DNA from: a virus
Taxonomy: Duplodnaviria > Heunggongvirae > Uroviricota > Caudoviricetes
Reading direction: 5' to 3' (one strand)
IMG/VR virus record: IMGVR_UViG_3300031133_000383
Location: 186,635-250,634 of that record
DNA: 64,000 bases
Below the pieces are notes generated by a model. It did not search any database, was not told where the DNA came from, and saw only the letters and a program-made list of their open reading frames with translations. Made by a program: the position numbers and the translations under genes. Every line of letters starts with the position of its first letter. Positions within the stretch are counted from its first letter, which is position 1. Positions 16,267-51,498 of the stretch are shown in pieces.

Positions 16267-16276
16267 GGAAACTATC

Positions 16277-23417: not shown

Positions 23418-23441
23418 ACCCAGCATTTAGCTGGGTTCTTG
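23418..23441 (-). terminator. hairpin cccagcatttagctggg with 7-T run on minus strand, upstream of thrS promoter
   Basis: Same hairpin family as 4392-4409/4642-4659. Confidence 0.45.
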
Positions 23442-28326: not shown

Positions 28327-28339
28327 ATTTAATAATAAT

Positions 28340-28417
28340 TGACAGGTAGCTCAGTGGGGAGAGCGGCTCCAAATTTTCGGGAGACGGTCGGGGGTTCAAA
28401 TCCTTCCTTGTCAACCA
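28340..28417 (+). tRNA. tRNA of uncertain identity with atypical (9-nt or mispaired) anticodon loop …cuccAAAUUUUCGggag…; Lys(UUU)-like?
   Basis: Acceptor tgacagg/cttgtca (U1-A72), U8, D-arm gctc-agtgggga-gagc, T-arm ggggg-ttcaaat-ccttc, CCA. Anticodon arm has 2 extra nt. Confidence 0.5.
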
Positions 28418-28426
28418 TCTTTATAT

Positions 28427-28514
28427 GGAAAAGTGGCAGAGCGGTTGAATGCAACGGTCTTGAAAACCGTCGGGTGTAAAAGCCTCGTGAGTTCGAATCT
28501 CACCTTTTCCGCCA
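28427..28514 (+). tRNA. tRNA-Ser (anticodon UGA), type II long variable arm, CCA encoded
   Basis: Acceptor ggaaaag/cttttcc. Anticodon stem acggt/accgt with loop cttgaaa. Variable arm cgggtgtaaaagcctcg. T-arm tgag-ttcgaat-ctca. Confidence 0.85.
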
Positions 28515-33312: not shown

Positions 33313-34008
33313 ATGTTGAATTTAGAAAGCTTTGAGCCTATAGTTAATAGGATAAGACAATCTAAAAACACTCATGGAATAGAATCACTGGTATTTGGTA
33401 ACATTTCTGTTAATTTATCGTATTTAAAATTGGAAGATAATCGTATCAACGTTAGAATTGAAAAATTCAAACTGGATTTTGTTCAGCAATTATATAAACA
33501 GTTTGGTATTGATTTAAAAGATATAAATAAAATTGTTGATCTTTATTATCAAAGATGTATGGAAGCCAATATCATTCATCAGTTAGCCTTTAAACCAATT
33601 TTTGATATTGCTTCATTTTTCACTGCCTACAATGGATTGAAAAGTCACTTTCCATTGAAAGATAGAAATGTTATCAGTTACGAAAGTCATCTTTTCAAAA
33701 AGGAATTGCTTACTAAAAAAATCCCAATGGTGTTGGTGGATTTTTATTTAGATTTTTTTTCAAATAGTCCTGTACCTTACATTTTGATTACTTTACCATT
33801 GGCAAGAGAAGAAAAATTTCAAGTTAGGCTAACTGCTTTTGGTAATATTGATGAAATTGATAGTGTTATCAAACATCATCTAAGGATTCGTATGAAATCC
33901 TTACTTAATGGAGCAACACGCAATTATATAAGTAAGCAAGAATTCAAAATAAGTGATTTTGATTCGATGTGTCGGCATATGCAATTACGTGATATGATTA
34001 ACTATTGA
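33313..34008 (+). CDS. C-terminal-tail family protein (…CRHMQLRDMINY)
   Basis: AAGGTGA SD. Confidence 0.6.
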   Translation: MLNLESFEPIVNRIRQSKNTHGIESLVFGNISVNLSYLKLEDNRINVRIEKFKLDFVQQLYKQFGIDLKDINKIVDLYYQRCMEANIIHQLAFKPIFDIASFFTAYNGLKSHFPLKDRNVISYESHLFKKELLTKKIPMVLVDFYLDFFSNSPVPYILITLPLAREEKFQVRLTAFGNIDEIDSVIKHHLRIRMKSLLNGATRNYISKQEFKISDFDSMCRHMQLRDMINY

Positions 34009-34032: not shown

Positions 34033-34785
34033 ATGTATAATGTTATCAAACCAGATTTTTATGAATTTATGTCTTTTATGAATCAACATCTACCTTTGGC
34101 AAAACAAAAAGATACTCATATCTTTGGGTATACTAAATATTTTTTTGAAATTACAGATGGTTTTGAAGTAAAAGTAGATGCTTCCATTTTGAATCTCAAA
34201 TTGGATAATAATTTCGCTAAACTTGTCTACAATTATTTTAATTTTGATTTCAAAGAAGTTGTCTCCATCATAGAATCTTATCATAAACATTTTACTGATT
34301 ATGGTTTGATAGATAACAAAAATCTAAATGAAATCCTCAATAATTGTTTTTTGACAGAGGATGAACGTATATTTTTTAGTGATATTAATCTTTATTCATA
34401 CAATACACGATGTGTAACCTTTAATAATTTAATAGTTGAAGTTCAAGTAACACACGATGCTTGCAAAGAAATGAAAATAAGAACTGTTATTTATTTTCCT
34501 GTTATGGATATTTCCTATATCAGTGTGACTGTTGACAAGACTATTAGCCAACCACCTATTGTTAAAGTAAGCAAAGTATTAAAAAGTCAGTCAATCAAAA
34601 GAACTCGAAATGCTCATTCTATTATTTCTAATTATTCATCTATAGATACTTATATGGAAAATATAGCGTTTTCAAGAGCAAAAAATATTATCAATCTGCG
34701 ATTGGGAATAAATAAACGAATAATAAAAAAAGATCCATTGGTTGTTCAAGATTATTTCAAATTATGTGAAATGATCAATATTTAA
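34033..34785 (+). CDS. C-terminal-tail family protein (…YFKLCEMINI)
   Basis: AAGGAG SD. Confidence 0.6.
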   Translation: MYNVIKPDFYEFMSFMNQHLPLAKQKDTHIFGYTKYFFEITDGFEVKVDASILNLKLDNNFAKLVYNYFNFDFKEVVSIIESYHKHFTDYGLIDNKNLNEILNNCFLTEDERIFFSDINLYSYNTRCVTFNNLIVEVQVTHDACKEMKIRTVIYFPVMDISYISVTVDKTISQPPIVKVSKVLKSQSIKRTRNAHSIISNYSSIDTYMENIAFSRAKNIINLRLGINKRIIKKDPLVVQDYFKLCEMINI

Positions 34786-34843: not shown

Positions 34844-35257
34844 ATGACATTTGATAATAGGTTATTCAACGTGAACGGAAAATCAAAAAAGCTTTTGAAG
34901 TCAGCTATCAAGCTTGCTTTCAAATTGGAAAGCCATAACGAAAACGGAGCTACGGCACAAGGCTATGTGGTTGACTCGAAAAAGGGAATTCTATTGCTTT
35001 GGCACGCTGATGGCATAAAGGGTGCCGTCAATTTTGAAAAACCAAAAGGGTATAGGGAATCTTGCGATTTTATTATAGATTGGCTAAAAACTCCAGAAGC
35101 ACACTCTATTGAGCTTAATGATTGGGAAGCGGATATTGATCACGATGGATCGAGTGATTTAGGCTGGCGAGTCTACCTTGAAGATTGGGGTCATGTAGGA
35201 AACAATCACTATGCTATTTGTGCTGTAAAACCTTGCTATATCTGGTATGGTAAATAA
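34844..35257 (+). CDS. hypothetical protein (137 aa)
   Basis: AGGAG SD. GGTATAAT -10 upstream. Confidence 0.55.
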   Translation: MTFDNRLFNVNGKSKKLLKSAIKLAFKLESHNENGATAQGYVVDSKKGILLLWHADGIKGAVNFEKPKGYRESCDFIIDWLKTPEAHSIELNDWEADIDHDGSSDLGWRVYLEDWGHVGNNHYAICAVKPCYIWYGK

Positions 35258-35258
35258 C

Positions 35259-35918
35259 ATGCCTAAAATCTATCCTGTTATACATTACAAAGATGATATT
35301 ACTACACTGGACGAAGCTTTACTGGCCAGCGAGGTAGGTGCTGACGGTATTTTTTTGATTTCACATATTGGTCATAATGAATGTTTAATTCCTTTGGCTG
35401 TTAAAATTAAGCAACTTCATGGTTTCAGAGTAGGCTTAAATTTTTTAGGCGATGATGTACTATCAACAGCTAATATTGTTAAAGAGCATGGTTTGGATAT
35501 GGTATGGGGTGATTACTGTGGTGTTTCTTCGAGTGGTTTGAATGACAAGGGAAGAAAACTTAAAGTATGGGCAGACAATAACCCAAATATTGATGTTTTT
35601 GCATCAGTTGCTTTTAAATATCAAGATATAGAAACAGATCCACCATTAGCTGCAAGGCATGCATTGATGGCAGGTTTTATTCCTACTACAAGTGGTTCTG
35701 GTACTGGTTATGCCCCCTCTATTGAAAAAATAAGTACAATGTCTGCTTGTACAGATGGTATTTTGGCGGTGGCAAGTGGTATGAATTGTGAAAATGTTCA
35801 AAAATTTAGTCCGTATCTTTCATCTATTTTGGTAGCAACCGGCGTCTCAATTGATGAGTATCATTTTGATTATGAAAAACTGTATCGTTTTATTCGATTG
35901 TCTAGGTTAAAACAATAG
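35259..35918 (+). CDS. putative TIM-barrel protein (BtpA/SgcQ-like?); alternative start 35247
   Basis: Gly-rich phosphate-binding-like segments (FIPTTSGSGTGYAP, VGADGIFLISHIG). Coupled to upstream stop. Confidence 0.4.
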   Translation: MPKIYPVIHYKDDITTLDEALLASEVGADGIFLISHIGHNECLIPLAVKIKQLHGFRVGLNFLGDDVLSTANIVKEHGLDMVWGDYCGVSSSGLNDKGRKLKVWADNNPNIDVFASVAFKYQDIETDPPLAARHALMAGFIPTTSGSGTGYAPSIEKISTMSACTDGILAVASGMNCENVQKFSPYLSSILVATGVSIDEYHFDYEKLYRFIRLSRLKQ

Positions 35919-36031: not shown

Positions 36032-36047
36032 AACAATAATGATATAT

Positions 36048-37322
36048 ATGAAAAAGTTTAAATTTTTACCATTGATATTGATTATACATACAGTAAGTTA
36101 TGCTGACTACACTGTTATCTATCCACTTACAAATGCCTCTATAACTATATCACAAAAACCGCCTAGTTATACTGATTGGGTTTCTGTCGGCAGCCCCTAT
36201 AATTGTGCATCCGCAAGTCCTATGGAAAATACAATTAATGAAGGTATTTCATATACCAAAAATTTTACTAATTGTGACCAAAACCAAGAAAGAAAAAAGA
36301 CGATAGGGTCAGTTGTCACTAATGAACAGCGTACCGTTTCTGGTATCAATTATCAAACTCAAAGTGTAGGTACAAAAAAATATATCCCAACCTATACTGA
36401 TTGGGTAAATGTGGATAATGCTTATAACTGTGCTTCTGCGACTCCTATGGAAAACACTGTCAATGAAGGCGTTGCTTATACAAAAACATTTAGTGATTGC
36501 AGTCAAAATCAAGAAAGAACAAAGACACTAAACTCCGTGGTTACCATAGAACAACGTACTGTTTCTGGCATCACTTATCAATCTCAAAGTGTAGGTACAA
36601 AAAAATCTGTTCCTACCTATACTGATTGGACCAACGTTGGTGGAGCTTATAATTGTAATCAAAATCCTAAAGAAGACACTATTGATGAAGGAGTGAGTTA
36701 CACAAAAACTTTTAGTGAATGTAGTCAAGATCAGGAAAGAACAAAAACATTAGATTCCACAGTTTCTGTAGAAAAACGCACTATTCCAGCACCTAGTTAT
36801 CAAACCCAAAGTGTTGGAACAAAAGTAGCTGTTGCAACTTATACAGAATGGGCAAAATCAGGAACTCCATACAATTGCAAAAATATTGGACCTATGGAAG
36901 ATACATTTAATGAAGGAACAGTGTTTACAAAAAATTACAATGATTGCAGTCAGGATTACACTCGAACTAAGACATATAAAGGTGTCAACACAACTGAGAG
37001 TCAAACGTTACAGGGATTTAATTATTCTGTTCAAAGCGTAGGTACACGATCAGTAACAGAATGTGCTCCTTATGCGACTAACAATAATTATCGTTGGATT
37101 GACGTTGCCAAACAACAGCTTGGTACACCTAATTATAAATATGAATTATGGTGGAATGGCAAAGCATTGGCTTTCTTAACAGATAAACCTGTTACCACTG
37201 CAGCGGATAAAACTTTTACCACAGGTGGTTATGTGTATAGTCGTGGAGAATATAAAGAAAGTACAGTAAGAAATAGCGATTATAAATACTTCTATTATCA
37301 AGTGTGTAGAAAACCTGTCTAA
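36048..37322 (+). CDS. secreted repeat-module protein (4 x ~77-aa Cys-pair modules + conserved C-terminal domain)
   Basis: Signal peptide …HTVSYA|DYTVIYPL. Modules YTDWVxVGxPYNCASxSPMENTxNEGxxYTKTFxxCSQNQERTKT…RTVSGIxYQxQSVGTK x4. C-terminus YKYFYYQVCRKPV. Confidence 0.75.
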   Translation: MKKFKFLPLILIIHTVSYADYTVIYPLTNASITISQKPPSYTDWVSVGSPYNCASASPMENTINEGISYTKNFTNCDQNQERKKTIGSVVTNEQRTVSGINYQTQSVGTKKYIPTYTDWVNVDNAYNCASATPMENTVNEGVAYTKTFSDCSQNQERTKTLNSVVTIEQRTVSGITYQSQSVGTKKSVPTYTDWTNVGGAYNCNQNPKEDTIDEGVSYTKTFSECSQDQERTKTLDSTVSVEKRTIPAPSYQTQSVGTKVAVATYTEWAKSGTPYNCKNIGPMEDTFNEGTVFTKNYNDCSQDYTRTKTYKGVNTTESQTLQGFNYSVQSVGTRSVTECAPYATNNNYRWIDVAKQQLGTPNYKYELWWNGKALAFLTDKPVTTAADKTFTTGGYVYSRGEYKESTVRNSDYKYFYYQVCRKPV

Positions 37323-37330
37323 CTTAAAAA

Positions 37331-37360
37331 ACACTCTTTTTCGAAAGGGTGTTTTTTTAT
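37331..37360 (+). terminator. rho-independent terminator acactctttttcgaaagggtgt + T7
   Basis: Seen directly. Confidence 0.7.
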
Positions 37361-37385
37361 AAACGTCTATTATTCAATAAAAATT

Positions 37386-37416
37386 TTGACATTATAATTA
37401 TTTTTGATATTATAAT
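37386..37416 (+). promoter_or_regulatory. sigma70 promoter TTGACA…TGATATTATAAT; near-identical copy at 38344-38376
   Basis: Duplicated promoter cassette preceding paralogs. Confidence 0.55.
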
Positions 37417-37439
37417 GTTAATACAACAATAAATATATT

Positions 37440-38273
37440 ATGACACATTTCAAGCTTTTACCTCTTTTGCTTTTTGTACAAACCATTAGTTATGCTGACT
37501 ACACTGTTATTTATCCATTAGCCGATTCTTCAATTTCAATAAAGCATAAAATTGAACCATCATTGCCGACCTATACAGAATGGGCATCCGTAGGCGAACC
37601 CTATAATTGTACGTATTCAACACCAAAAGAGGATACAATTGAAGAAGATACCGTATATACGAAAACTTTTAGTAATTGTACTCAAAAACAATCAAGAACA
37701 AAAACACTAGATTCGAATGTTACTACAGAGGAACGTACTATTTCTGGCGTACAATACCAAGCTCAAAGTATAGGTACAAAATTGGCTGTCGCTACTTACA
37801 CAGAATGGGCTATATCTGGTAAACCTTATGATTGTAAATCAGCTAGCCCTATGGAAGATGCCTTTACGGAAGGAACTGTCTTCACAAAACACTATACTGA
37901 TTGTAGCCAGAATTTAACTAGGATTAAAACCTACAAAGGTGTACAAACAACTGAAAGTAAAGTGGCGACCGGTTATGGATATGATGCTGAAAGCGTTGGA
38001 ACACGATCTGTGACTGAATGTATGACTCGATCTACTGATTATTATTGGATCGATGCAGCTAAACAACCGCTTGGATCACCCAACTATAAATATAATATAA
38101 AATGGAACAAGTCAACTTTGGCCAGTTATACATCAAAAGTCAATAACAACCCAGCAGATACAAGTTTTACCTCAGACGGTTATATTTATAGTCGTGGAAC
38201 CTACAGATCAACAACTTTACGATTTGAGGATTATAAATACTTTTATTATGACATATGCAGAAAACCTATTTAA
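37440..38273 (+). CDS. secreted repeat-module protein (2 modules)
   Basis: MTHFKLLPLLLFVQTISYADYTVIYPL signal. Same modules and C-terminal domain (…YKYFYYDICRKPI). Confidence 0.75.
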   Translation: MTHFKLLPLLLFVQTISYADYTVIYPLADSSISIKHKIEPSLPTYTEWASVGEPYNCTYSTPKEDTIEEDTVYTKTFSNCTQKQSRTKTLDSNVTTEERTISGVQYQAQSIGTKLAVATYTEWAISGKPYDCKSASPMEDAFTEGTVFTKHYTDCSQNLTRIKTYKGVQTTESKVATGYGYDAESVGTRSVTECMTRSTDYYWIDAAKQPLGSPNYKYNIKWNKSTLASYTSKVNNNPADTSFTSDGYIYSRGTYRSTTLRFEDYKYFYYDICRKPI

Positions 38274-38282
38274 CTTATAATA

Positions 38283-38310
38283 AAAAGCACATTGTGGGAT
38301 ATGCTTTTTT
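38283..38310 (+). terminator. rho-independent terminator agcacattgtgggatatgct + T6
   Basis: Seen directly. Confidence 0.6.
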
Positions 38311-38398
38311 ATTAATTATTATTTCTATTATTCAATAATTTATTTTGACATCATATTAATTTTTGATATTATAATATTAATACAATAATAAATATATT

Positions 38399-39232
38399 AT
38401 GACACATTTCAAGCTTTTACCTCTTTTGCTTTTTGTACAAACCATTAGTTATGCTGACTACACTGTTATTTATCCATTAACCGATTCTTCAATTTTAATA
38501 AAGAATAAAATTGTACCATCAGTGCCTACCTACACAGAATGGGCATCCGTAGGCGAACCTTATAATTGTGCATCATCAAATCCACAAGAATATAATGTGG
38601 ATGAAGGTGTAACCTATACTAAGACTTTTAATGATTGCATACAAAAACAAGAAAGAACGAAAACATTAGACAAAGAGATTACCACTGAATCTCGTACTAT
38701 TTCTATTTCGCAATATAAAGTTCAAAGTATTGGAACAAAGGTAGCTATACCTAGTTATACCGAATGGACTAATTCTGGTAGTGCTTATAACTGTCAATCC
38801 GTTAGCCCTATGGAAGATACTATTTCAAAAGGAAAAGAATATACAAAAAATTATACCAACTGCAGTATTAATCAAACTAGAACAAAAACACTTAATAATG
38901 TTAAAAATACTGAGACACGAGTTGCTGATGGGTATTCATACTCTATTCAAAGTGTTGGAACAAGAAATGATGAAGAATGTTTAAAATTTTCAAATTCTAG
39001 TCGTTGGGTAGATTATGCAAAAACACCACTTACTGCACCTAATTACAAATATCAAGTAGTATGGAATGGTAATGTATATGCTTCTTTTTCAAATTTACCA
39101 GAAAAAACCAATGTAGACATGAGTTTTACTTCAGGAATCTATGTATACACTCGTGGAACCTATCAATATTCGCAAAAAGTTGATAAGGATTATCAATATT
39201 TTTATTATGAATTATGTAGAAAGCCTATTTAA
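38399..39232 (+). CDS. secreted repeat-module protein (2 modules)
   Basis: 5' 100 nt nearly identical to 37440 gene. C-terminus …YQYFYYELCRKPI. Confidence 0.75.
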   Translation: MTHFKLLPLLLFVQTISYADYTVIYPLTDSSILIKNKIVPSVPTYTEWASVGEPYNCASSNPQEYNVDEGVTYTKTFNDCIQKQERTKTLDKEITTESRTISISQYKVQSIGTKVAIPSYTEWTNSGSAYNCQSVSPMEDTISKGKEYTKNYTNCSINQTRTKTLNNVKNTETRVADGYSYSIQSVGTRNDEECLKFSNSSRWVDYAKTPLTAPNYKYQVVWNGNVYASFSNLPEKTNVDMSFTSGIYVYTRGTYQYSQKVDKDYQYFYYELCRKPI

Positions 39233-39340
39233 TTTTTATCAATAAATAATAATAAATGTTAAGTATTATATTAAATATTTTGATATTGTAGAACTTGGTG
39301 GTATTATAATAATAGAACAATAATTATATATTTAACCTCT

Positions 39341-40198
39341 ATGAATTTTTTTAAATTACTACCTTTGATTTTTGCAATACAATCAATCAGCTATGCTGAT
39401 TATACAGTCATTTATCCTTTGGATAGTTATCTTCTTAGTATAAAAAATAAAGTTGTAACCAATCCTGATGACGGCTCTGAACAATCTGTCTATACAGAAT
39501 GGTCATCCAATACAGATCCATACGATTGTGCAAAAATTTCGCCACTTTCAGAAACTATTGACGAAGGGGTATCCTTTACTAAAACATTTTCCAACTGTCT
39601 GCAAGACCAAACACGAACAAAAACTTTAAATTCTAAAATATCTATTGAGCATCGGACTGTTCAGGGTGTAGGTTATACAACTCAAAGTATAGGAACAAAG
39701 AAAGCCGTGGCTACTTATACAGAGTGGGTCAGATCAGGTGTACCTTATAAATGTGAGTTTATTGGGCCGATGGAAGATACTGTTGTGGAAGGATCTGCAT
39801 ATACCAAGACTTATAAAAATTGTAGTGCGGATTTTATCAGAACTAAAACACTCAGTGGTGTTGAAACAACTGAAAGTAAGGTCGTCACTGGTTATGAATA
39901 TTCTGTTCAAAGTATTGGAACTCTATCAGGAACAGAATGCTTGGTTTATAACGATACCACTAGTCAGAGTCGTTGGATTGATGCTGCTAAAACAGAGATG
40001 TCGGCTCCCAATTATAAATATGAGCTAACATGGAAAGGAAAATATATAGCAAACTTTACATCATCTACTGTCAATGTGGTTGATAACAGTTTTACAAAGG
40101 ATGGTTATATTTATAGTCGTGGAAAGTTTTTTTCTCGCTATGACCGTAATTTTGGCTATTATTATTTTGCCTATCAAGTGTGTAGAAAACCTGTTTGA
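39341..40198 (+). CDS. secreted repeat-module protein (2 modules)
   Basis: MNFFKLLPLIFAIQSISYADYTVIYPL. C-terminus …YYYFAYQVCRKPV. Confidence 0.75.
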   Translation: MNFFKLLPLIFAIQSISYADYTVIYPLDSYLLSIKNKVVTNPDDGSEQSVYTEWSSNTDPYDCAKISPLSETIDEGVSFTKTFSNCLQDQTRTKTLNSKISIEHRTVQGVGYTTQSIGTKKAVATYTEWVRSGVPYKCEFIGPMEDTVVEGSAYTKTYKNCSADFIRTKTLSGVETTESKVVTGYEYSVQSIGTLSGTECLVYNDTTSQSRWIDAAKTEMSAPNYKYELTWKGKYIANFTSSTVNVVDNSFTKDGYIYSRGKFFSRYDRNFGYYYFAYQVCRKPV

Positions 40199-40280
40199 GT
40201 CAACTATAAAATTGTTGACATTTAAAAAAAGCTTTGTTATATTCAATTCTTAAAATTAATAAACAAAAGAGGAATACACC

Positions 40281-40451
40281 ATGGCTAAGATAACAGTTTA
40301 TACCAAGAGCGAACGTAAAGAACGTGATGTTGAGTTAGCATGGAGACAGAGAGAAGCTGCTTTCAATCCAAAAATCTCGAAAGAAAAAGCTTGGGAACGA
40401 TTTGAACAATTACGTGAAAAAGCTCTTGGCTATTAACCTTACTATAATTAA
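40281..40451 (+). CDS. small basic protein (~56 aa)
   Basis: AAAAGAGGAA SD 8 nt before ATG. Lys/Arg/Glu-rich. Confidence 0.35.
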
Positions 40452-40495
40452 AAAGCAACTTTCATGTTGCTTTTCTTCATTTGGGGCACTGATAT

Positions 40496-41062
40496 ATGCA
40501 TGATATTTCAACACTCAAAAATCCTTCATTACTCTTTGCTGGTTTACTCAATGTGTATCGAGACATTGGTTTGGCTGATTTGGATGTTGCTGATGAAGAA
40601 ATTATTCAGCAAAATATATTGGTTATACAAGAATTGGTAAAATCTCCACACAATAGTTCTATTCCTTTTATCTTGACAAACTCTACTGTTTCTTTGTTGT
40701 CAAAACAAAACAGTGTTCGTCTAACAGGAAATAATTCATCGTTATTATTTAAAATCAAAACCATCCTTTCCACTCAATCTTTCTATATGTCATTGGACAA
40801 AGATAATGAACAAAAAATAAAGTTAATAAAATTTCATAAAAATAATATTCATGATATTGCTTCATATGAATATGTGTATATTACCTTAGACGAATTTCTG
40901 GTTCTTCTGAAAGACCTATTGCTGAATGAGCTTTTCACTATTATCAACAACTCATTTAAGCAAACCAATACTATGGACTTTTTTAGTTTTGAAGATTTTA
41001 TAGCATTACCAGCCTCTACTCGACGCCAGTATATTAACTTGTATCATATGAATACTATTTGA
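40496..41062 (+). CDS. C-terminal-tail family protein (…RRQYINLYHMNTI)
   Basis: 188 aa. Confidence 0.55.
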   Translation: MHDISTLKNPSLLFAGLLNVYRDIGLADLDVADEEIIQQNILVIQELVKSPHNSSIPFILTNSTVSLLSKQNSVRLTGNNSSLLFKIKTILSTQSFYMSLDKDNEQKIKLIKFHKNNIHDIASYEYVYITLDEFLVLLKDLLLNELFTIINNSFKQTNTMDFFSFEDFIALPASTRRQYINLYHMNTI

Positions 41063-41110
41063 ATTTATCCTCAATTTATGAGATAATCGGTACAATTCAG
41101 AGGATTTATC

Positions 41111-41701
41111 ATGCAGGATTTAAAATTATTAGATTATACAATCGTAACAGATTTTCTAACAAAAGCATTTGATTTGGGTGTTGAGTTATGTGCTTTTGAA
41201 GACCATAAATTTTCAGTCAATGCAGTTATTGAACAAATTATCTTGAATGGGTTTACACAATACACAGCAAGCAATCAAAGTCGTTTTCAACGGTTAACTT
41301 ACCGTAAAGCGTATCGTAAAAAATCAAGTAGCGGTTTGCTGGCTAATACATCCGTGGTTAATCATAAATTCTTTACTCCTGAGTTTTTTGAAGGTCAGCC
41401 TCTTTTTCTACATTTATCTTGGCCAGTGCATTTACATTTTCGTAAAGATATTTATTTTGATTTAAAAAATCAGGAAATTTATGAAGATGTTAAGAACATA
41501 AGAAAAGAAGTTGTCAGTTATTTTAAAAGTGATATTGATACAATTTTAAATGAATGTTCAGAGCGTCATTATAGTGGTTTGCATATATCGTTTACTAATG
41601 CAATTGAAGATTTTTCGCTTAAACGTAAAGATATGATGAGTATGCCAATCGATGATATTAATCGCTACATGACACTGGCTGATATGATAACAACTGTTTG
41701 A
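41111..41701 (+). CDS. C-terminal-tail family protein (…INRYMTLADMITTV)
   Basis: CAGAGGA SD. Confidence 0.6.
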   Translation: MQDLKLLDYTIVTDFLTKAFDLGVELCAFEDHKFSVNAVIEQIILNGFTQYTASNQSRFQRLTYRKAYRKKSSSGLLANTSVVNHKFFTPEFFEGQPLFLHLSWPVHLHFRKDIYFDLKNQEIYEDVKNIRKEVVSYFKSDIDTILNECSERHYSGLHISFTNAIEDFSLKRKDMMSMPIDDINRYMTLADMITTV

Positions 41702-41713
41702 GGTTGGGCATTT

Positions 41714-42538
41714 ATGAATAATAAATTTTTATCCGTATTCAAGTCTTATTACTCTGCCAAACTTGAGCAATATGGTTTTTACACAAACAACATTGTTGAA
41801 AAAAATTATACATCTAATCTTGGCGAAGTCCTACTTCTTCAAATTGAAAATGTTAACTCTGACCTATTGTGTGTTGAATTTATTTCAAATCAGTATTCTA
41901 AATATAAAAATTCGTATCGTATTTTTTTTATTTTTCAAGATAGCACGCTTAGTCCTGATGATAAGAATATAAGGGTCAACCATTATTCAACCGCCATTTT
42001 TGGTTTTGACTTTGATAACATACATCAATTGCTGCTGTCTTATTTTCGGGCAGGTCTGGAAAAGAAAATTTTCGTTTGCACAGATCCTTTAATATTAAAC
42101 AATATACCCAGTTCTTTTATTGTTGATCATAGCGATTCTACATCATATTTAGCATCAAAACATAATATAATTTTAAAAGGATTAGAGTATAATCCTTTAT
42201 TAAGAGGTATTATTAAAAATAACAAACCTACTGTTAGCTTAAAGATTGTTTTCAATTTCGATAATGGCTTTGGTCAAGCAACAGTAGCAACCTTCAAATA
42301 CATTAAAAAACATAATTATAATATTATTTCAGCCAATGATATCGACAAAAAAGAAACTGCAAAAATTATTCATTTTAATAATGAATTTACACGGTTGAGT
42401 TTTTTGCAAGCAGAATGTGAAATGGTGATACAACAACAACTTGATGATTTATTAAACAATAATGTAGTTGATTTAACCATGATTTCACAAATAGATTTTG
42501 ATAATATTGTCTTAACAAAAAGAATGGCGGATTATTGA
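41714..42538 (+). CDS. C-terminal-tail family protein (…LTKRMADY)
   Basis: GAGG SD. Confidence 0.55.
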   Translation: MNNKFLSVFKSYYSAKLEQYGFYTNNIVEKNYTSNLGEVLLLQIENVNSDLLCVEFISNQYSKYKNSYRIFFIFQDSTLSPDDKNIRVNHYSTAIFGFDFDNIHQLLLSYFRAGLEKKIFVCTDPLILNNIPSSFIVDHSDSTSYLASKHNIILKGLEYNPLLRGIIKNNKPTVSLKIVFNFDNGFGQATVATFKYIKKHNYNIISANDIDKKETAKIIHFNNEFTRLSFLQAECEMVIQQQLDDLLNNNVVDLTMISQIDFDNIVLTKRMADY

Positions 42539-42540
42539 TC

Positions 42541-43287
42541 ATGACTATTATAGAATCATATCCTTTTATTAATCAGCAAATTATTTCTTTTTTTAAAGAG
42601 CAGTTTAATTTGAAAGTACACACTGAGCTAAAGGTTTCTCTCAGTACGCAGATTTTTGTATTTGACTCGTTTAATAAAAAAACAATATTTAATATCTACT
42701 GTTCTCAAACGAAATTAGGAAAATTGCTTTATACGTTTTACATATTGGATAGAGAATCAAGTATTTATTTAACGACATTCACACAATTTTATATGCTAAG
42801 TACATCAAAAGAAATGAATGCTTATTTTGACATAATAAAGCAAGTAGGTAACTCATTAGGTTTTCCTCTTGATTTATCAGTGAGATCCTTTGAAGAATTG
42901 AATTCAACAATTAAACCTAAGATTTATAATAATTCTTTAATGGTATTATGCGATCAACAAGTTGGTTATGACAAAAAAATGAAATACAATTACAATATAT
43001 ATTCCAGTTTTTCTTTTGAATTCAACACTGATCATATTGATGTTATTAGAATTCTTTACTATGATGCACCACATGGTAAGAATTTTGCACTTTGTTTACA
43101 TTCTGATGGTACACTTTTCGACAATGACTTGATTGTATTCGAAGAAAATATTCGAGGTTTTTTCCGTGAAGAAATAATTCGACGTTTAGTGAATGTATTG
43201 TATTATGATATTAAAGATTTACGTGATTTCTCGGACGCTGAGTTGGCAATTCACCTGCCTTTGATTGAAATAATTGATTTTTCATGA
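42541..43287 (+). CDS. hypothetical protein (…LPLIEIIDFS, family-like); TTG alt start 42535
   Basis: Start overlaps upstream stop region. Confidence 0.5.
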   Translation: MTIIESYPFINQQIISFFKEQFNLKVHTELKVSLSTQIFVFDSFNKKTIFNIYCSQTKLGKLLYTFYILDRESSIYLTTFTQFYMLSTSKEMNAYFDIIKQVGNSLGFPLDLSVRSFEELNSTIKPKIYNNSLMVLCDQQVGYDKKMKYNYNIYSSFSFEFNTDHIDVIRILYYDAPHGKNFALCLHSDGTLFDNDLIVFEENIRGFFREEIIRRLVNVLYYDIKDLRDFSDAELAIHLPLIEIIDFS

Positions 43288-43331
43288 TTTTTTCTATATA
43301 CTTATAAAGTTTTGTACAGGGAAAAAATAAA

Positions 43332-44057
43332 ATGAGTGAACTCACCGATATTCCAAAATTTATAGGGATTTTCTTTGACAAGTATAACAATGGCAAAATT
43401 GGTATACAATTAAAAAAAGAACACTATAATAACGTTGTTTGTGTTGAAACTAATAAAGGAAAACCTATCTTAAAACTATCCGAATATGTTACTCGTTCTC
43501 CATATCCTTGTTTTTATGTTTCTTGTCACTATGTAAAAGATCAGCATTTTATTACAAGATTAATAAGAGAATACAGTATTGAAGATAAAGAAATGTTTCT
43601 TTTTATGATTGATACCATCAAAACAGCATTAGTTAAGCTAGGTCTAGCCACTGATGTAAAGATAAATCCAAAGATATTTACAGCTAGATTAGATTTTAAC
43701 AGATACAGTAATGGATATGTCGTCAAGGATATTGAATGTTTTTCAATTATTGATAATAATTCAACAACTATTATTTATCAAAATTTTAATTTTTCTATTT
43801 TTGAAGACAAGGTTTATTTAATTCGAACATTTCATTTCAACTATTTAATGCAAGAGTATGTTTTTGATGTGTTTAGTCACTTTGTTGACCGTGAGCAATC
43901 ATTCAATACCATCAAGCAAAATATTTATAGCAACTTTCGACAAAAGATGATTGAACATATTTCTCAAATAATGAAAATACCAAAAGAAGAATTTGCAGAT
44001 TTTTCAGACGAACATTTAGCTGATTCGTATAAGCTTTGTAACATGTATAGTTATTGA
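43332..44057 (+). CDS. C-terminal-tail family protein (…LADSYKLCNMYSY)
   Basis: 241 aa. Confidence 0.6.
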   Translation: MSELTDIPKFIGIFFDKYNNGKIGIQLKKEHYNNVVCVETNKGKPILKLSEYVTRSPYPCFYVSCHYVKDQHFITRLIREYSIEDKEMFLFMIDTIKTALVKLGLATDVKINPKIFTARLDFNRYSNGYVVKDIECFSIIDNNSTTIIYQNFNFSIFEDKVYLIRTFHFNYLMQEYVFDVFSHFVDREQSFNTIKQNIYSNFRQKMIEHISQIMKIPKEEFADFSDEHLADSYKLCNMYSY

Positions 44058-44096
44058 TTTATTGTCTTTAATGCTGTATGATTAGCAAATATTTGA

Positions 44097-46200
<2,104 letters not shown>

Positions 46201-46262
46201 TATTTACAATGTTATGTGTTATCATTATTTCTTTTTATTGAAATATAAAAGGTCAATGAATT

Positions 46263-47039
46263 ATGGCAAATACACAAGAGAAAGATTTCTTAATGCTTAT
46301 CAAAGCTTTGTCTGCCCATACTGGTGAACGGTATCAGCATCACAATCAAGGATCTTCTTTGTTGATCAAAAGTAATAAAGAAGATATTTCATTTGTTAAA
46401 TTTGGTTATGACAGAGTGTTGAGAGCGTTCAATTCAATTCAATTTACCGATGCAACGCCAAACAATATAAAAGAAATATTTATTGTTCCCACCGAACTTA
46501 AAATTATTCAATCCATCGTTGACGGTTTTTTCAATCACCCACTTGTAAAAAGTGTTTTTATTAATCCTCTTATCGCATCTATCAATACTCCTATGGTTTC
46601 TTTTAATAACATAGGGATACCTGCACATAGTCGGCTAGCTCTGAAAAAGCAATTTTCATACCGTAACGCATTGAATGAGTTTACATTAGAAAAACACATT
46701 ACAGCAACTGCTGCACTAGATATTGTTTTGGAAGTGAAATTGAAATTCAATATTTCAAAAATTGGCTGTTTCGAGTTTTTATATAACCCTATTGATAAAC
46801 AAATTAAATTGATTTCAAATATTGTCTACATTGACAGTAGACCTCAATATATATATTGTGATAGACTTCCAATGAGTGAAGAATGCTTAAAATCAAAAAT
46901 GATCGATTGGTTAAATAAAATTTCCGAACCTGTATTTATACATTTATTGTATGCACATCGTTTGAATATAACAGATGTTAGTTTTAACAAACAAAACATA
47001 CAAGAAAGTTTTTTAATGTTGGAGATAGTAATTGACTGA
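46263..47039 (+). CDS. hypothetical protein (…FLMLEIVID, family-like)
   Basis: AAAAGG SD. Confidence 0.55.
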   Translation: MANTQEKDFLMLIKALSAHTGERYQHHNQGSSLLIKSNKEDISFVKFGYDRVLRAFNSIQFTDATPNNIKEIFIVPTELKIIQSIVDGFFNHPLVKSVFINPLIASINTPMVSFNNIGIPAHSRLALKKQFSYRNALNEFTLEKHITATAALDIVLEVKLKFNISKIGCFEFLYNPIDKQIKLISNIVYIDSRPQYIYCDRLPMSEECLKSKMIDWLNKISEPVFIHLLYAHRLNITDVSFNKQNIQESFLMLEIVID

Positions 47040-47868
47040 TAATACTGTGTTGAACAACTTAAAGGAATTTTTTATAGCTTATTTAAAAACTAATCATCAC
47101 CTTGATGTTGTTAAAACAGCTATTAAACATAAGGTGAATAATGGTCGTTCTGATGTGATTAAATTTATCATTAAGGATTTGACTATCAGTCCGCACAATA
47201 GATATGTATTGGTTTATGTAGATCGCTATAATAAAGGTTTTATTGATATATCGACGAACATAGATAAAATTTTTTTGATCACAATGTATAATGATTTCTT
47301 GTCACCTTATCTCTATAAGGAGATAGATGTCTTCAAAAAAACATTACAATTTATTTCAGATAAATTTATATTGTTTGATTCTATGGACTATGATATTGGC
47401 GAAGAGTATGGACATATTAAACATGCGACTTCAAAAGAATTTAGTGAGCAATATTTTAATATGTCTAGTTTATTGATTACCAAACTTCCTATCAATACAG
47501 ATGTATATCCCAAATGGAAAAATTGTTATATCACCAGTCAACTACAATTTATTTATAACAATGATAAATTAGTGGCCTTTCCTGTTATTTCACTCCACTT
47601 AGGCAATATCTATCATGCTCAGAAATTAAAAAACAATTCAATTGTCGCTGTGTCTTCTAATGAAGAAATCATATCGATTGAATTAAGCTTACGCAAGAAT
47701 TTTTCTAGTCATGTCTCAAAATTCGTTAGTATTTTTGAAAATTTGTTATACAATGATTTCTATAAAGCTCTAGGCCAATTTTTCAACATCAGTCTTGAAG
47801 ATATTAAACAAAGCACTGCCCAAGATCTAGAAGCCTATGCAACTGTATTACGTATAAAATATACATGA
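47032..47868 (+). CDS. hypothetical protein (TTG start, …ATVLRIKYT)
   Basis: GGAGA SD 9 nt upstream of TTG. No in-frame ATG for about 88 codons. Confidence 0.5.
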   Translation: MTDNTVLNNLKEFFIAYLKTNHHLDVVKTAIKHKVNNGRSDVIKFIIKDLTISPHNRYVLVYVDRYNKGFIDISTNIDKIFLITMYNDFLSPYLYKEIDVFKKTLQFISDKFILFDSMDYDIGEEYGHIKHATSKEFSEQYFNMSSLLITKLPINTDVYPKWKNCYITSQLQFIYNNDKLVAFPVISLHLGNIYHAQKLKNNSIVAVSSNEEIISIELSLRKNFSSHVSKFVSIFENLLYNDFYKALGQFFNISLEDIKQSTAQDLEAYATVLRIKYT

Positions 47869-47878
47869 GGATTTATTG

Positions 47879-48757
47879 ATGTCAGACTCTATCAAACGTT
47901 ATTTTCCATTAATAAAAATGGTTAACTCCAAAATAAATATGTATTATCCTAATAATCTTACAACTGTATTACGCAATAGTTCGTTAAATGATTTCGAAAT
48001 TATTATAAAAACTGATAGTTTTCATTCTTCAAAGACGGATTCTATCATTTTTGAGAAAAATGATAAATCTTCTCGTATCAATAGTATTTTATTAGAAAAA
48101 ATAAGATTTTACTTTAGAGAATACGATGGTTTTAATCTGCTGACAATGACAGCTTCGACCAATAGAAAATCACCTATTATAAAAGATATTTACGATGAAT
48201 TATTTTCTGGCGTTGAATTTCCATCTTCTCGTTTTATTGATATATTAGATAGGTATGAAGAAACAACTGCAAAATTTGATTATTTTTCAGGCTTTAAAAA
48301 GCGATTTATTCCACAATCAATTGATGATATGTTCGTAAAAAAGACGGATGGCAAACAAACAAAAGATTTAAAGGTTGGACAAGCTCATTATTCTCAAATG
48401 GGTAAATCAGAAAACATGCGTAAATCTAGCATGAATTCTAGTTCTTCCTACTCTCCAATTAAGGCAGATTTAAAAATTGGATTTACTGATAAAGATAATT
48501 TTATTCCAATTGTTTTATTTACATTGCCTATTCTGTCATCCAATAAATATAAGATGCCTGTTCCCATTCTTTCAAACAACTTTGAGAATTTTTTGGAGCA
48601 ATCTTTTGAAAAGTTCGAAGCAGCCTTCAAGAAGTGTATTATTAATATTATTGCCAATAAAGAAAATCTCAAACTTAAAGAAAAAAAATTACTGTTTAAT
48701 CTTTCTGATGAAGAGCTTTATATGAGATATAAAATTGTTGAAATGATCAATATATGA
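47879..48757 (+). CDS. C-terminal-tail family protein (…YMRYKIVEMINI)
   Basis: GAGGA SD. Confidence 0.6.
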   Translation: MSDSIKRYFPLIKMVNSKINMYYPNNLTTVLRNSSLNDFEIIIKTDSFHSSKTDSIIFEKNDKSSRINSILLEKIRFYFREYDGFNLLTMTASTNRKSPIIKDIYDELFSGVEFPSSRFIDILDRYEETTAKFDYFSGFKKRFIPQSIDDMFVKKTDGKQTKDLKVGQAHYSQMGKSENMRKSSMNSSSSYSPIKADLKIGFTDKDNFIPIVLFTLPILSSNKYKMPVPILSNNFENFLEQSFEKFEAAFKKCIINIIANKENLKLKEKKLLFNLSDEELYMRYKIVEMINI

Positions 48758-49533
48758 AGATTAAAGATTATTTTTTAAACACCTTTAATCACTATACTGT
48801 GCATTTTGATAGTTTGAATAATTTTTTATTTGTTCGTTTGTATGATGGTGTGAAATTTATAGCTAAATTTAAAATAAAAGGCAATTCTATCATAGGGATT
48901 TATTTACATCCAGAATATGAAAAAGACATTGATAGAGTTTTTCGTTTTACTTATGATTTAACTATCGAAAAAAAGCTTTGTATAGCTGTTAATCTTTTTC
49001 TCAACAATAAAGTTATGGCTGCTTTTTTTAAGTCTGTTGACAGACGTTTCCGGCAAATTCAAGATGCCAATATTTATGATAATTTAAGACAATATGATAT
49101 GGATACTTCAATGTACCTTGAAACGTATCCTCGATTTGAACTTCAATACAGAACATGTGGAAAAATTTATTACGCTCAATTCTTTATATTTGATTCAAAC
49201 AATTATCCACATTCTATTTTTGCTATTAGTTTTTTGTTGCCAAAATATACAGTGCATATTTTGTATTCAGTAGAATTAAATACGTTTATAAGTGTTCAAG
49301 GCTTATTTAAAGATTTACCAATTCAGTTTCATGAAAAAACCTTTGAACATATTTTCGAAAGTGCTAAACCAATTAAAGATCTCAGCACTTATATAAATGA
49401 TTATCATAGTTATGACATTATGTTTACTTTTGTCAATATGATAACAAATGATAGATCTTTAACTGAACACATGTTGCCTTCCATCGATTCATTGGATAAT
49501 GCCATTGATCTATTAAATATGATGTATATTTGA
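48754..49533 (+). CDS. C-terminal-tail family protein (…IDLLNMMYI); ATGA start/stop overlap
   Basis: 259 aa. Confidence 0.6.
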   Translation: MKIKDYFLNTFNHYTVHFDSLNNFLFVRLYDGVKFIAKFKIKGNSIIGIYLHPEYEKDIDRVFRFTYDLTIEKKLCIAVNLFLNNKVMAAFFKSVDRRFRQIQDANIYDNLRQYDMDTSMYLETYPRFELQYRTCGKIYYAQFFIFDSNNYPHSIFAISFLLPKYTVHILYSVELNTFISVQGLFKDLPIQFHEKTFEHIFESAKPIKDLSTYINDYHSYDIMFTFVNMITNDRSLTEHMLPSIDSLDNAIDLLNMMYI

Positions 49534-49696
49534 GGCAGTTACTACTATTCATATTACATATTTGATTAAAACTATAATTTATTCAATGACAGTTAATACC
49601 AAATGAATAAAACATTGACAAAATTTAATATTATCGCTATATTTATTAATCGAAATCATGCTCTATACCTATGTAACACAAGAAAAGGAGAAACCT

Positions 49697-50215
49697 ATGT
49701 TATTTGTTGAAGGCTATTATGAAAAAGATAGATTTATCAAAGACTTTAAAAAATTTTCACCCCATTTCAAAAGTTATAGAAAAGCTCAGAATCGTAAAAG
49801 TCTGATCGACTTTTTTATCACTGTCATGATGTCTATACTGTTACTTTCACTGACCAATATTTATGAAGACTATTCGTTATTAATTTTCATAGTAGGTTTT
49901 ATTGTCATTTCAATCAGTATGTTTTTAATAATCAATATTAAAAATGAAGATTTGAAAAGCTTTGACTTGTTTCAAGTCTCTGCACTGGATGGAACATTTA
50001 AAGATCTAGATGAAGAAGATTGTTTTGGGCCTTTTTTGAAAGATTATCTCAGAGATAATAAACAAGAAATAAAAGAACGATTATCTGAATCTAAATTAAT
50101 TAGTGGACGGCTTGCCCTAGAAATCTACAATAAAATAAATTCAGATACTTATAAAAATGGAAAACGTATAATCGAAAATGAAAAAAGAATTCTTAGAGAA
50201 ATCGAAGATATTTAA
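49697..50215 (+). CDS. membrane protein (2 TM helices)
   Basis: AAAAGGAGAAA SD before ATG 49697. Confidence 0.55.
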   Translation: MLFVEGYYEKDRFIKDFKKFSPHFKSYRKAQNRKSLIDFFITVMMSILLLSLTNIYEDYSLLIFIVGFIVISISMFLIINIKNEDLKSFDLFQVSALDGTFKDLDEEDCFGPFLKDYLRDNKQEIKERLSESKLISGRLALEIYNKINSDTYKNGKRIIENEKRILREIEDI

Positions 50216-50298
50216 TATGAGGATGTCATCTGGAAAAAAATCTTGCAGTTTTTTTGATAATTTAGTATACTTACTGCTAAATCAAAAAGAGATATTTT

Positions 50299-50523
50299 AT
50301 GAAGATTAAACATACCTTGGTAGCTAATAAAGAATACTCTATAAATAAACATAGTTATACAGTTTCCATGATTACATCCTATGACAGAGGATTGCTGATG
50401 GGAACTCGTATTTATGTCCTAGAACCTGTCGATCCTTTGCTCAGGACTCTTACAGCAGTTCATTGGCCGGATGGTGTAATTGATCGTATCAAGCCCTACA
50501 CAAAACCAAAATCTCTACTTTGA
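50299..50523 (+). CDS. small hypothetical protein (74 aa)
   Basis: ORF with weak SD. Confidence 0.35.
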   Translation: MKIKHTLVANKEYSINKHSYTVSMITSYDRGLLMGTRIYVLEPVDPLLRTLTAVHWPDGVIDRIKPYTKPKSLL

Positions 50524-50607
50524 CATATTTGGTAGTAGTTTTTTCTTTACAGATTGTTTGTTTTTTGTTACAATCGCATTATTAAATCAATATCACTAGG
50601 AGTTGTT

Positions 50608-51498
50608 ATGTCAAAAGAAATTCGCTTTAAAACTGAAATTGCCTCACTCGATAAATCTCTTATGAAGCAAGTTTCTGAGAAGCGTTCTCGCAAAGAATTT
50701 AAAGATCTGAAGTCTAAGTCAAATGAAATTGTTTATGTTATCCGGTTCAAATCAAGTGAAAAAGATCTTGCGTTTGAAAAATTGGAGCGTGACGTTGATA
50801 TGACTATTCTTAATAGTTCTCGTGGTGAGACAGTTTATATGGTTATTCATAGTCCCGGTGGTAGTGTAACTGCTTACGCAAACGCAGCACAACAAATTCA
50901 GCGTTTGAAGGCTCACGGACTCAAAGTGATTGCCTATGTTGATGAAGTTGCTGCTTCGGGTGGCTATATGATGGCGTCTGTTTGCGATGAAATTGTAGCA
51001 CAACCTTTTGCTTTTGTAGGGTCCATTGGTGTTGTTTCTCAAGTGCCAATTGTTGAAGAAGCCCTTAATAAAATTGGTGTTGATTACAAAGTATATACAG
51101 CAGGAAAGCTAAAGCGTACAGTTGTGCCAACTAAAACGCCTACTGTAGAAGAAGAAATCAATTATAAAGAAAAATTGAATGATATTCATACTGCCTTTAA
51201 AAACCATGTTCTGAAATATCGTCCTTATGTCAATGCAGATAAATTGATGGAAGGTGACTTCTATATGGCTCAAGATGTAGTGGATGCCCGATTGGTAGAC
51301 TCCATTGGCGATAGTCGTAGTGCCATTCTTGCAGCTTTCAAAAAAGGGACCCATTTGTATGAAGTCAAAACAGAAGCAAAAAAAACAGGTGGCGGTCTTG
51401 TCAGTTTTTTTGGTGTAGACTCAGTTCTGGAAATGGCGATTGGTAAGTTTTTCGACCGTATTGTTTCAATGACACATCCTAACGAAAACATCCGTTAA
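50608..51498 (+). CDS. S49-family serine peptidase (SppA / ClpP-fold protease-like)
   Basis: AGGAG SD then ATG 50608. Motifs MVIHSPGGSV, AASGGYMMASVCDEIVAQPFAFVGSIGV. Confidence 0.7.
   Translation: MSKEIRFKTEIASLDKSLMKQVSEKRSRKEFKDLKSKSNEIVYVIRFKSSEKDLAFEKLERDVDMTILNSSRGETVYMVIHSPGGSVTAYANAAQQIQRLKAHGLKVIAYVDEVAASGGYMMASVCDEIVAQPFAFVGSIGVVSQVPIVEEALNKIGVDYKVYTAGKLKRTVVPTKTPTVEEEINYKEKLNDIHTAFKNHVLKYRPYVNADKLMEGDFYMAQDVVDARLVDSIGDSRSAILAAFKKGTHLYEVKTEAKKTGGGLVSFFGVDSVLEMAIGKFFDRIVSMTHPNENIR

Follow-up and report, generated by a model that had tools for sequence, protein, structure and literature searches.

A 64,000-nt stretch of phage DNA (Caudoviricetes; positions 186,635 to 250,634 of IMG/VR record IMGVR_UViG_3300031133_000383, hereafter the window) encodes a large family of proteins that share a C-terminal module of ~25 residues with the consensus ending [LI]-h-[E/K]-M-x-x-[I/Y]-COOH (h, hydrophobic). 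The window contains 26 of these genes, which is ~40% of its open reading frames (ORFs) of at least 120 amino acids (aa; n = 66). Judging from the gene sequences, this is a clade-specific, tandemly expanding and fast-evolving family in huge (0.4-0.6 Mb) phages. The module itself would be a docking or address helix for one shared partner, a reading to which we give an even chance or slightly better.

The C-terminal module

Met occupies position -4 (counted from the C-terminus, with -1 as the last residue) in 21 of the 66 ORFs, against a background of 2.0% Met (binomial P = 9e-20). The pattern [LIVMFT]x[EDKRNHQSP]Mxx[YIFVLTAD] terminates 21 ORFs; its internal frequency (28 hits at 17,496 positions) predicts 0.1. 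Five further genes carry close variants, with Ile for Met or one extra terminal residue, which brings the family to 26 members. Membership was scored by leave-one-out with a C-terminus-anchored 24-position matrix, against a null of 16,044 internal windows of sequence. All strict members fell within the top ~1.2% of this null. The best-scoring non-member (26207-26983) overlaps the weakest members, and the other non-members are spread across the null range. The gene at 35247-35918 (...FIRLSRLKQ) was at first counted as a weak member and then dropped, as it has a marginal match to the BtpA family and a background-level matrix score. The 10-kb flanks of the window contain three more genes with Met at -4 (two clear tails and one weak) and one weak tail variant without Met.

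An earlier note on this DNA, made from the letters alone, had drawn attention to ten consecutive genes at 40496-49533. All ten indeed lie on the + strand and encode proteins of 188-293 aa, with only the seryl-tRNA synthetase (SerRS) gene serS (44106-45389) between them. The tails quoted in the note were correct, and the one that it had not listed is ...LPLIEIIDFS of 42535-43287. The overlaps between neighbouring genes are as it described them (4 nt at 42535-42538, 8 nt at 47032-47039, and ATGA at 48754-48757). The ten genes of this array are:

40496-41062, + strand: 188 aa, ...INLYHMNTI; Met at -4 and Leu at -7; no match in Pfam or PHROGs
41111-41701, + strand: 196 aa, ...TLADMITTV, one extra terminal residue; matrix score 9.7 when shifted by one; extended -10 promoter-like sequence upstream
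41714-42538, + strand: 274 aa, ...VLTKRMADY; Met at -4; stop overlaps the TTG start of 42535-43287
42535-43287, + strand: 250 aa, ...LPLIEIIDFS, Ile for Met and one extra residue; shifted matrix score 9.1; upstream DFSDAEL segment fits the module; weak full-length similarity to 43332-44057
43332-44057, + strand: 241 aa, ...YKLCNMYSY; top leave-one-out matrix score (31.2)
45379-46200, + strand: 273 aa, ...LTLSEMINY; Met at -4; start overlaps the end of serS
46263-47039, + strand: 258 aa, ...FLMLEIVID, Ile at -4; weak body similarity to 384-1151
47032-47868, + strand: 278 aa, ...ATVLRIKYT, Ile at -4; matrix score 2.8, in the top 0.05% of the null
47876-48757, + strand: 293 aa, ...YKIVEMINI; body similar to 45379-46200 and 34033-34785
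48754-49533, + strand: 259 aa, ...IDLLNMMYI; ATGA overlap with 47876-48757

The other arrays and singletons named in the note proved to be real, and its count of at least 20 members in 64 kb is exceeded by the 26 found here. We added the genes 384-1151, 9358-10446, 24198-24986(-) and 27489-28100. The members outside the array of ten are:

384-1151, + strand: subfamily B, 255 aa, ...AIILPMMFT; aligns with subfamily B over its full length
1404-2147, + strand: subfamily B, 247 aa, ...IKIIEMQYY; in the subfamily B alignment
2164-3000, + strand: subfamily B, 278 aa, ...VKLLEMIGV; in the subfamily B alignment
7370-8053, + strand: subfamily D, 227 aa, ...QSLIEMLTF; orthologs in four other contigs
9358-10446, + strand: subfamily R, 351 aa when called from 9391, ...ILLYKMLSI; ortholog in contig L044
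12419-13174, + strand: ~235-251 aa, ...IKILKMYNY; counterparts in contigs L044 and L047
18469-19332, + strand: 287 aa, ...LTLQHMQSI; Met at -4, tail matrix
19349-19924, + strand: subfamily C, 191 aa, ...IEVLKMYIA; Met at -4, body match within subfamily C
19985-20551, + strand: subfamily C, 188 aa, ...RHILRMICI; Met at -4, body match within subfamily C
20665-21279, + strand: 204 aa, ...NIIRMYYSN, one extra residue; tail matrix
21294-22163, + strand: 289 aa, ...IEINEMLDD; Met at -4
24198-24986, - strand: 262 aa, ...TLTKEMEVY; Met at -4
27489-28100, + strand: 203 aa, ...ATLVEMMSY; Met at -4, tail matrix
32563-33303, + strand: 246 aa, ...LDLVKMDNI; Met at -4
33313-34008, + strand: 231 aa, ...MQLRDMINY; Met at -4, weak body matches
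34033-34785, + strand: 250 aa, ...FKLCEMINI; Met at -4, weak body matches

A trivial explanation might be that AT-rich codons at gene ends produce the pattern by composition. The window has a G+C content of 28-35%, and I, N, Y and K are common. However, besides the excess of terminal matches over expectation, the non-family ORFs of the window do not carry the pattern, and the pattern is kept in orthologs of only 37-46% identity. Codons also differ freely at the conserved positions, with 10 different codons at -7 and ATT, TAT, TAC and others at -1, which points to selection on the peptide rather than to a DNA repeat. The earlier note had named such an artefact of AT-rich codons as a possible refutation, and it is excluded by these controls within the window.

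The ~20-residue tail that had been described is present, but the conserved segment reaches ~25 residues. In the window set, position -22 is Asp or Glu (15 of 21), hydrophobic residues occupy -21 and -18, and Ser is frequent at -17. A profile of 44 strict members, pooled from the window and its relatives, shows Leu at -13, Ile or Leu at -9, Leu, Ile or Val at -7 (93% hydrophobic), 77% hydrophobic residues at -6, and 66% at -3. Position -5 is Glu in 55% and otherwise polar, L-x-E preceding the Met in 55% and K, R, H, N or D being found elsewhere; position -1 carries Ile or Tyr (91% hydrophobic). Over the last 12 positions, basic residues make up 0-23% and acidic ones as much as 61%. No residue of the family is better conserved than Met at -4. 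Its distance to the C-terminus is nearly fixed: three residues follow it in 21 of the 26 members, and four in three others. Insertions and deletions are common elsewhere in the proteins, even just upstream of the module.

The spacing of the conserved positions is that of an amphipathic helix. Upstream of this terminal helix is a capping Ser/Asp-x-x-Glu turn with a short segment, preceded by a longer amphipathic helix. AlphaFold models of two members, 45379-46200 and 1404-2147, both consist of a beta-meander, a long helix, a short helix and a terminal helix, at low confidence (mean predicted local distance difference test score, pLDDT, 51.8 and 53.8, respectively). In the former, the helices span residues 216-245, 250-253 and 258-272; in the latter, only the N-terminal domain reaches a pLDDT of 70-84. 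The short and terminal helices have a pLDDT of 46-69. We also considered a truncated sigma-70 region 4 helix, because an LSxEE...L segment resembles the first helix of that region, but nothing follows it and the candidate was rejected. The family shows no physicochemical bias: its members are soluble, with a median isoelectric point of 6.0 versus 6.4 in the other ORFs.

Protein bodies and subfamilies

The members lack recognisable domains, as had been proposed. Pfam, PHROGs and PDB sequence searches with members and family profiles gave nothing, and fold searches were also empty. Individual Pfam and PHROG families each matched at most one of the 26 members, and never significantly. When 47876-48757 and 7370-8053 were used in word-indexed protein searches, each found nothing but itself; for 47876-48757 this was its own copy on a 604,313-bp contig. 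A word-indexed search with the subfamily B alignment found two proteins, and tblastn against GenBank phages found no match. A leave-one-out family hidden Markov model (HMM) scores at most 21-25 bits, which is too weak for databases of a billion sequences.

All-against-all BLAST and phmmer comparisons of the members gave only a few links. With the last 30 residues removed, seven family-family pairs, no family-nonfamily pairs and two other pairs were found at E<=0.01. In hhalign, 22 of the 30 best pairs were family pairs, where 36% would be expected. Iterative HMMs and profiles of the members did not grow beyond small seed clusters, and the subfamilies stood out after relatives from other phages had been added. 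Subfamily B (384-1151, 1404-2147 and 2164-3000, with 12 relatives, hence 15 sequences) then aligns over its full length. It has only four nearly invariant columns, D46, P76, E243 and M244, the last two being residues of the tail. The tail-trimmed profiles of subfamilies B, D, N, R, A, A2 and C score one another no better than controls, with probabilities below 5%. By these comparisons there is homology within subfamilies, and between subfamilies only the C-terminal module appears to be common. The suggestion that the bodies are highly divergent and that the family is defined by its tail alone thus holds between subfamilies and fails within them. Pooled member lengths range from 188 to 362 aa (median 257). 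The N-termini are not conserved.

Two adjacent subfamily B members in a related phage (L044 2595-3599 and 3599-4627) have their N-terminal domain duplicated in tandem, with the LLVDDAL...YPF...FDL motifs occurring twice, which shows the body to consist of a separable domain. The body of 7370-8053 contains a unit resembling the repeats (HRxNxLPAxIxYxxNG, MORN-like by eye) of two multi-repeat proteins, P0006 and P0009, which were weak matches in an exhaustive search with this protein; the motif is absent from the other subfamilies.

Relatives in other huge phages

Metagenomic contigs of 323 kb (ENA ERZ27247402 k141_253576) and 604 kb (the 604,313-bp contig) hold the same proteins as the window. 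Relatives among sequenced phages are distant only; one protein has 45% identity to its counterpart in the Xanthomonas jumbo phage XacN1. Shine-Dalgarno sequences and sigma-70-like, often TG-extended, promoters lie upstream of the starts. Because of the large contigs, these expression signals and the distant phage relatives, we conclude that the window is part of an uncultured huge phage (~0.6 Mb) of a bacterium with ordinary promoters and ribosome-binding sites. Recoding was considered and rejected, since the aminoacyl-tRNA synthetase and ligase genes are intact under code 11 and the stops of the family are a mixture of TAA, TGA and TAG.

An exhaustive phmmer search with 7370-8053 found three orthologs, and a fourth contig (L031) was reached via the neighbouring gene 4883-7219. 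The orthologs in these four contigs are full length at 37-46% identity, with Met at -4 in three and Ile in one (P0003). The contigs are syntenic with positions 384-16500 of the window. One of them, L044, is 391,564 bp long with 32% G+C; JGI 3300035210 Ga0370511_0000002 is also 391,564 bp, and ENA ERZ27271673 k141_99891 is a further contig of interest for the family. A tail with Met at -4 is present in 10 of 19 genes of L044, in 7 of 18 genes of L047 (plus two variants), and in 3 of 5 genes of L031. The L044 ortholog of 9358-10446 (12087-13145) ends in ...ILLYRMMAI, while positional counterparts of 12419-13174 in L044 and L047 end in ...VIEMVYI, ...IIEMMYI and ...ILNMMHI. Positional counterparts that flank a 58%-identical gene have kept the tail while their bodies cannot be aligned. 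The number of tandem subfamily B copies also differs, with 2-3 in the window, 2 in L031, and 5 each in L044 and L047.

Near-identical assemblies of the window phage differ from each other at a few sites. Family genes contained 7 nonsynonymous and 6 synonymous differences, serS and a MYG1-like gene together 0 and 7, and one non-family gene 4 and 4. For 43332-44057 compared with the assemblies L002 and L003, 6 nonsynonymous and 2 synonymous differences were found, versus 0 and 3 in the adjacent serS. One of the changes in 43332-44057 replaces S by R at tail position -2, which is a non-conserved position. From few differences, this substitution pattern would fit fast protein evolution with a protected tail.

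SerRS as an anchor for finding relatives led to unrelated high-GC huge phages without the family. The 778-aa protein of 4883-7219 failed as a marker of phage relatives, because it is absent from IMG/VR and widespread in bacteria, although a metagenome scan with it gave L031. XacN1 has the 4883-7219 gene but not its neighbourhood.

Possible roles of the C-terminal helix

The proposal of a shared C-terminal targeting or docking signal remains the best reading of the family. The fixed register at the C-terminus, the invariant Met and the persistence of the tail on diverged, unalignable bodies favour an external partner over an internal structural role. Helix-in-groove contacts typically involve Met, and in a protein core this residue is seldom the best conserved. 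Each member would thus be a variable alpha/beta body capped by the common helical module. The amphipathic last helix with its free C-terminus would insert in a hydrophobic groove of one conserved partner, such that many different payload bodies are brought to one place. The destination that we favour is the prohead interior, from which the packaged proteins would be delivered with the DNA. A packaging role was one of three roles that the earlier note had proposed, and it is plausible by analogy with the T4 internal proteins, the head paralog families of phiKZ-like phages and the P22 scaffolding protein (see below); prohead loading as the actual destination is, however, a guess that we hold only tentatively. 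The same caution applies to the broader picture of a 'zip code' helix that loads dozens of structurally unrelated, fast-diversifying effectors into the capsid or another single hub, which we regard as possible but rather doubtful.

Several observations weigh against these ideas. Our analysis identified no partner of the tail, both structural models are of low confidence (pLDDT 52 and 54), and no member has a recognisable domain that would prove the portability of the tail. The window has no recognisable portal, capsid or scaffold gene. Upstream of the arrays are sigma-70-like promoters, which would suit early genes rather than late structural genes. The S49 protease at 50554-51498 may be a membrane protease of the NfeD/SppA type rather than a prohead protease, because it follows a membrane protein and an SPFH protein is encoded at 31574-32473; NfeD and SPFH proteins are known partners in cells. 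Finally, common descent alone could be the source of the shared last helix.

This last point leads to a structural alternative, in which the tail is the last helix of a small inherited C-terminal domain that closes the fold or self-associates without any external partner. The family would then be an ordinary but extremely diverged lineage-specific expansion. The length of the conserved segment and the further amphipathic helix before it are in line with such a domain, as are the same order of elements in the AlphaFold models of two subfamilies, the similar lengths of the members, and the enrichment of weak body similarities in family pairs (7 versus 0 at E<=0.01, and 22 of 30 in hhalign). Yet, an invariant Met at a fixed distance from the C-terminus is unusual for a helix that packs on bodies diverged beyond recognition, the deeper subfamily profiles do not recognise one another, and iterative HMMs stay within their seed clusters. 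We consider this alternative unlikely, though by no means negligible. It is improbable that the tail is a degron, whose hydrophobic end is read by a protease or unfoldase that limits the lifetime of early proteins. Its hydrophobic C-terminus at a fixed register, the sigma-70-like promoters suggestive of early expression, the ClpP-fold S49 protease directly downstream of the array and the phage HSP70 encoded 10 kb upstream of the window could all be understood in this way. However, the tail is not known to resemble the C-terminal tags of ClpX, Lon or Tsp. The module is also longer and more structured than typical degrons, and nothing ties the S49 protease to the family proteins.

The tail might instead be a peptide of the PIP-box type that would tether the family proteins to DNA-bound sliding clamps or another ring. 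The DNA polymerase of phage RB69 (gp43), which carries such a peptide, ends in ...SLFDMFDF-COOH. This ending is in register with the family consensus at four positions: Leu at -7, an acidic residue at -5, Met at -4, and an aromatic or hydrophobic residue at -1. The resemblance is to a single sequence and might be a coincidence. In RB69, the peptide binds a hydrophobic pocket of the clamp gp45 (PMC6212786). Such a clamp- or ring-binding role is quite improbable for the family, as it is hard to rationalise why more than 30 hypervariable proteins would compete for one clamp. No member has a nucleic-acid-enzyme domain, and the polymerase-like fragment and NAD-dependent ligase of this phage lack the tail. 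Nor did a clamp emerge from our Pfam survey, in which 30 non-family ORFs of the window were scanned, while precomputed listings served for the window ends and for 10 kb on each flank; together these take in most ORFs, with a handful in neither. The two other roles that had been proposed, a secretion or translocation signal and a ligand of a PDZ protease, are very improbable. The mostly hydrophobic residues at -1 and -3 (91% and 66%) do resemble class II PDZ ligands, but the conserved Met at -4 and Leu at -7 lie outside PDZ recognition. Neither PDZ domains nor secretion-system genes are seen in the same survey, whose coverage of the non-family ORFs of at least 120 aa is large but incomplete. 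The protease near the array is S49/ClpP-like, the element itself is a phage, and signal peptides are missing from the family proteins.

Genomic setting

The genes of the window are tightly packed and predominantly on the + strand. Our reading of the gene neighbourhood covered the window and 10 kb on each flank. Other features of the window are:

8077-9309: PNKP-type phosphatase
16513-18384: NAD-dependent DNA ligase
22204-23469, - strand: class II aminoacyl-tRNA synthetase
25011-26108, - strand: DNA-polymerase-like fragment
28248-28514: three tRNAs
31574-32473: SPFH (Band 7) protein
40215-40474, + strand: promoter-like site TTGACA-17-TATATT (TG-extended), with a stem-loop and T-run ~200 nt further on; immediately before the first array gene
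44106-45389, + strand: SerRS (serS), with Pfam Seryl_tRNA_N and tRNA-synt_2b; a non-member that interrupts the array
50554-51498: S49 protease (ClpP fold)
56416-57675: tyrosyl-tRNA synthetase
61997-62902: MYG1-like gene

The promoter and stem-loop at 40215-40474 may represent a leader or attenuator, or else a small transcript. Directly upstream of the array, at 36039-40198, is a second family of four paralogs (48-62% identical) with signal peptides and internal repeats of ~75 aa. All four end in YY-x-(V/I)-CRKP(V/I), and each is preceded by a near-consensus TTGACA-16-TG-TATTAT promoter. On the other side, 49658-51498 encodes a membrane protein and then the S49/ClpP-fold protease, which has partial NfeD similarity. 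PHROGs labels this protease as 'head maturation protease', such that its role is ambiguous.

The three aminoacyl-tRNA synthetase genes (22204-23469(-), 44106-45389 and 56416-57675) lie within or beside arrays of the family. In a related phage, two family members enclose a 369-aa gene that by eye is class II aminoacyl-tRNA synthetase-like (L031 5220-6329(-)), at a place where no gene is found in the window phage. An HSP70/DnaK-like protein (L027 4770-6671) and an ADP-ribosylglycohydrolase (L027 3066-3914) are encoded within 10 kb upstream of the window.

Two tandem copies of a sequence, with a period of ~251 nt and 79% identity, lie at 4387-4871, in a non-coding gap flanked on both sides by minus-strand genes. 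Read on the minus strand, both copies contain a promoter-like TTGACC-17-TGATATTAT and terminate in a stem-loop with a T-run, and they look like a pair of small-RNA genes. They have no match in Rfam, and their fold z-score is only -0.85. The adjacent 778-aa protein (4883-7219(-), phrog_33734) has no Pfam match. It is 58% identical in a related phage and 43-49% identical to proteins of numerous bacteria (Mesorhizobium, Dactylosporangium, cyanobacteria, Bacteroidota) and of the Xanthomonas phages XacN1 and Xoo-sp13. It belongs to a widespread uncharacterised family.

Significance and comparison with known systems

Knowledge of huge phages comes almost entirely from metagenomes, and the majority of their genes lack a functional assignment. 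In this case, one rule for a fixed C-terminal helix unites ~40% of the genes of a 64-kb stretch, and across four lineages it takes in at least 44 proteins. What was a collection of orphan genes thereby becomes one testable system, in which the partner of a single 25-residue peptide would give the destination of the whole family. If this partner is the prohead, the helix would add a new signal for loading cargo into very large capsids, and the family would serve as a fast-evolving injected arsenal. If loading into the capsid or another hub is true, this arsenal would be modular and expandable, and the helix a C-terminal counterpart of the capsid targeting sequence (CTS) of phage T4 and a reusable cargo-loading tag. 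A protease or clamp as partner would reveal a new way for phages to coordinate many accessory proteins. If the tail is purely structural, the family would still be an unusually large and fast-diverging expansion, of modest interest.

Lineage-specific expansions have been described in other jumbo phages, such as the ~35 zinc-ribbon copies of Bacillus phage G (PMC7824862). In both cases one small protein family fills a sizeable fraction of the genome. However, the expansion in phage G is defined by a known fold, whereas the family described here has no recognisable fold and has only its C-terminal module in common. Similarly, the head paralog family packed by SPN3US has 20 members, compared to 2 in phiKZ (PMC5694885). 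These phiKZ-like families also form large tandem arrays of paralogs without assigned function, with copy numbers that vary between related phages (2 to 20 in phiKZ and SPN3US, and 2 to 5 in subfamily B). They differ in that the phiKZ-like paralogs were recognised by body similarity and proteomics has proven their presence in the virion, whereas our family was recognised by a terminal motif and its packaging is a proposal. PHROGs and Pfam scans of the 26 members found no homology to PF12699 or to the SPN3US paralog family B.

C-terminal helices that bind capsids are known as well. The scaffolding protein of P22 binds the coat protein via a C-terminal helix-turn-helix (PMC9965877). This domain of ~30 residues binds by means of basic residues, in contrast to the acidic to neutral tail with a hydrophobic face described here, and the sequences of both the P22 scaffolding helix and the cargo-loading peptides of encapsulins are unrelated to the tail. 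The RB69 peptide differs from the module in another way: it is found on one replication enzyme, whereas the module is found on dozens of proteins and extends ~18 residues further upstream.

The internal proteins of phage T4 are diverse and fast-evolving, and have only a CTS in common (PMC3012670). This is the same arrangement of diverse phage proteins with one short terminal peptide common to all. The T4 CTS, however, is N-terminal, ~10 residues long and removed by the prohead protease, whereas the module here is C-terminal, ~25 residues long, apparently helical, and ends the protein. The two have no sequence similarity, and for the present family packaging is a proposal. With regard to the (L/I)-x-E cleavage site of the T4 type, the tails are mixed: L-x-E precedes Met in 55% of the 44 members, with K, R, H, N or D in the others, and cleavage there would remove only 4 residues. 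Hence, tandem lineage-specific expansions in jumbo phages and a shared terminal targeting peptide on diverse phage proteins are both already known. What is new is a family without homologs in curated libraries whose shared element is C-terminal and helical, the scale of 26 genes in 64 kb, and the conservation of this element across a clade of 0.4-0.6 Mb phages.

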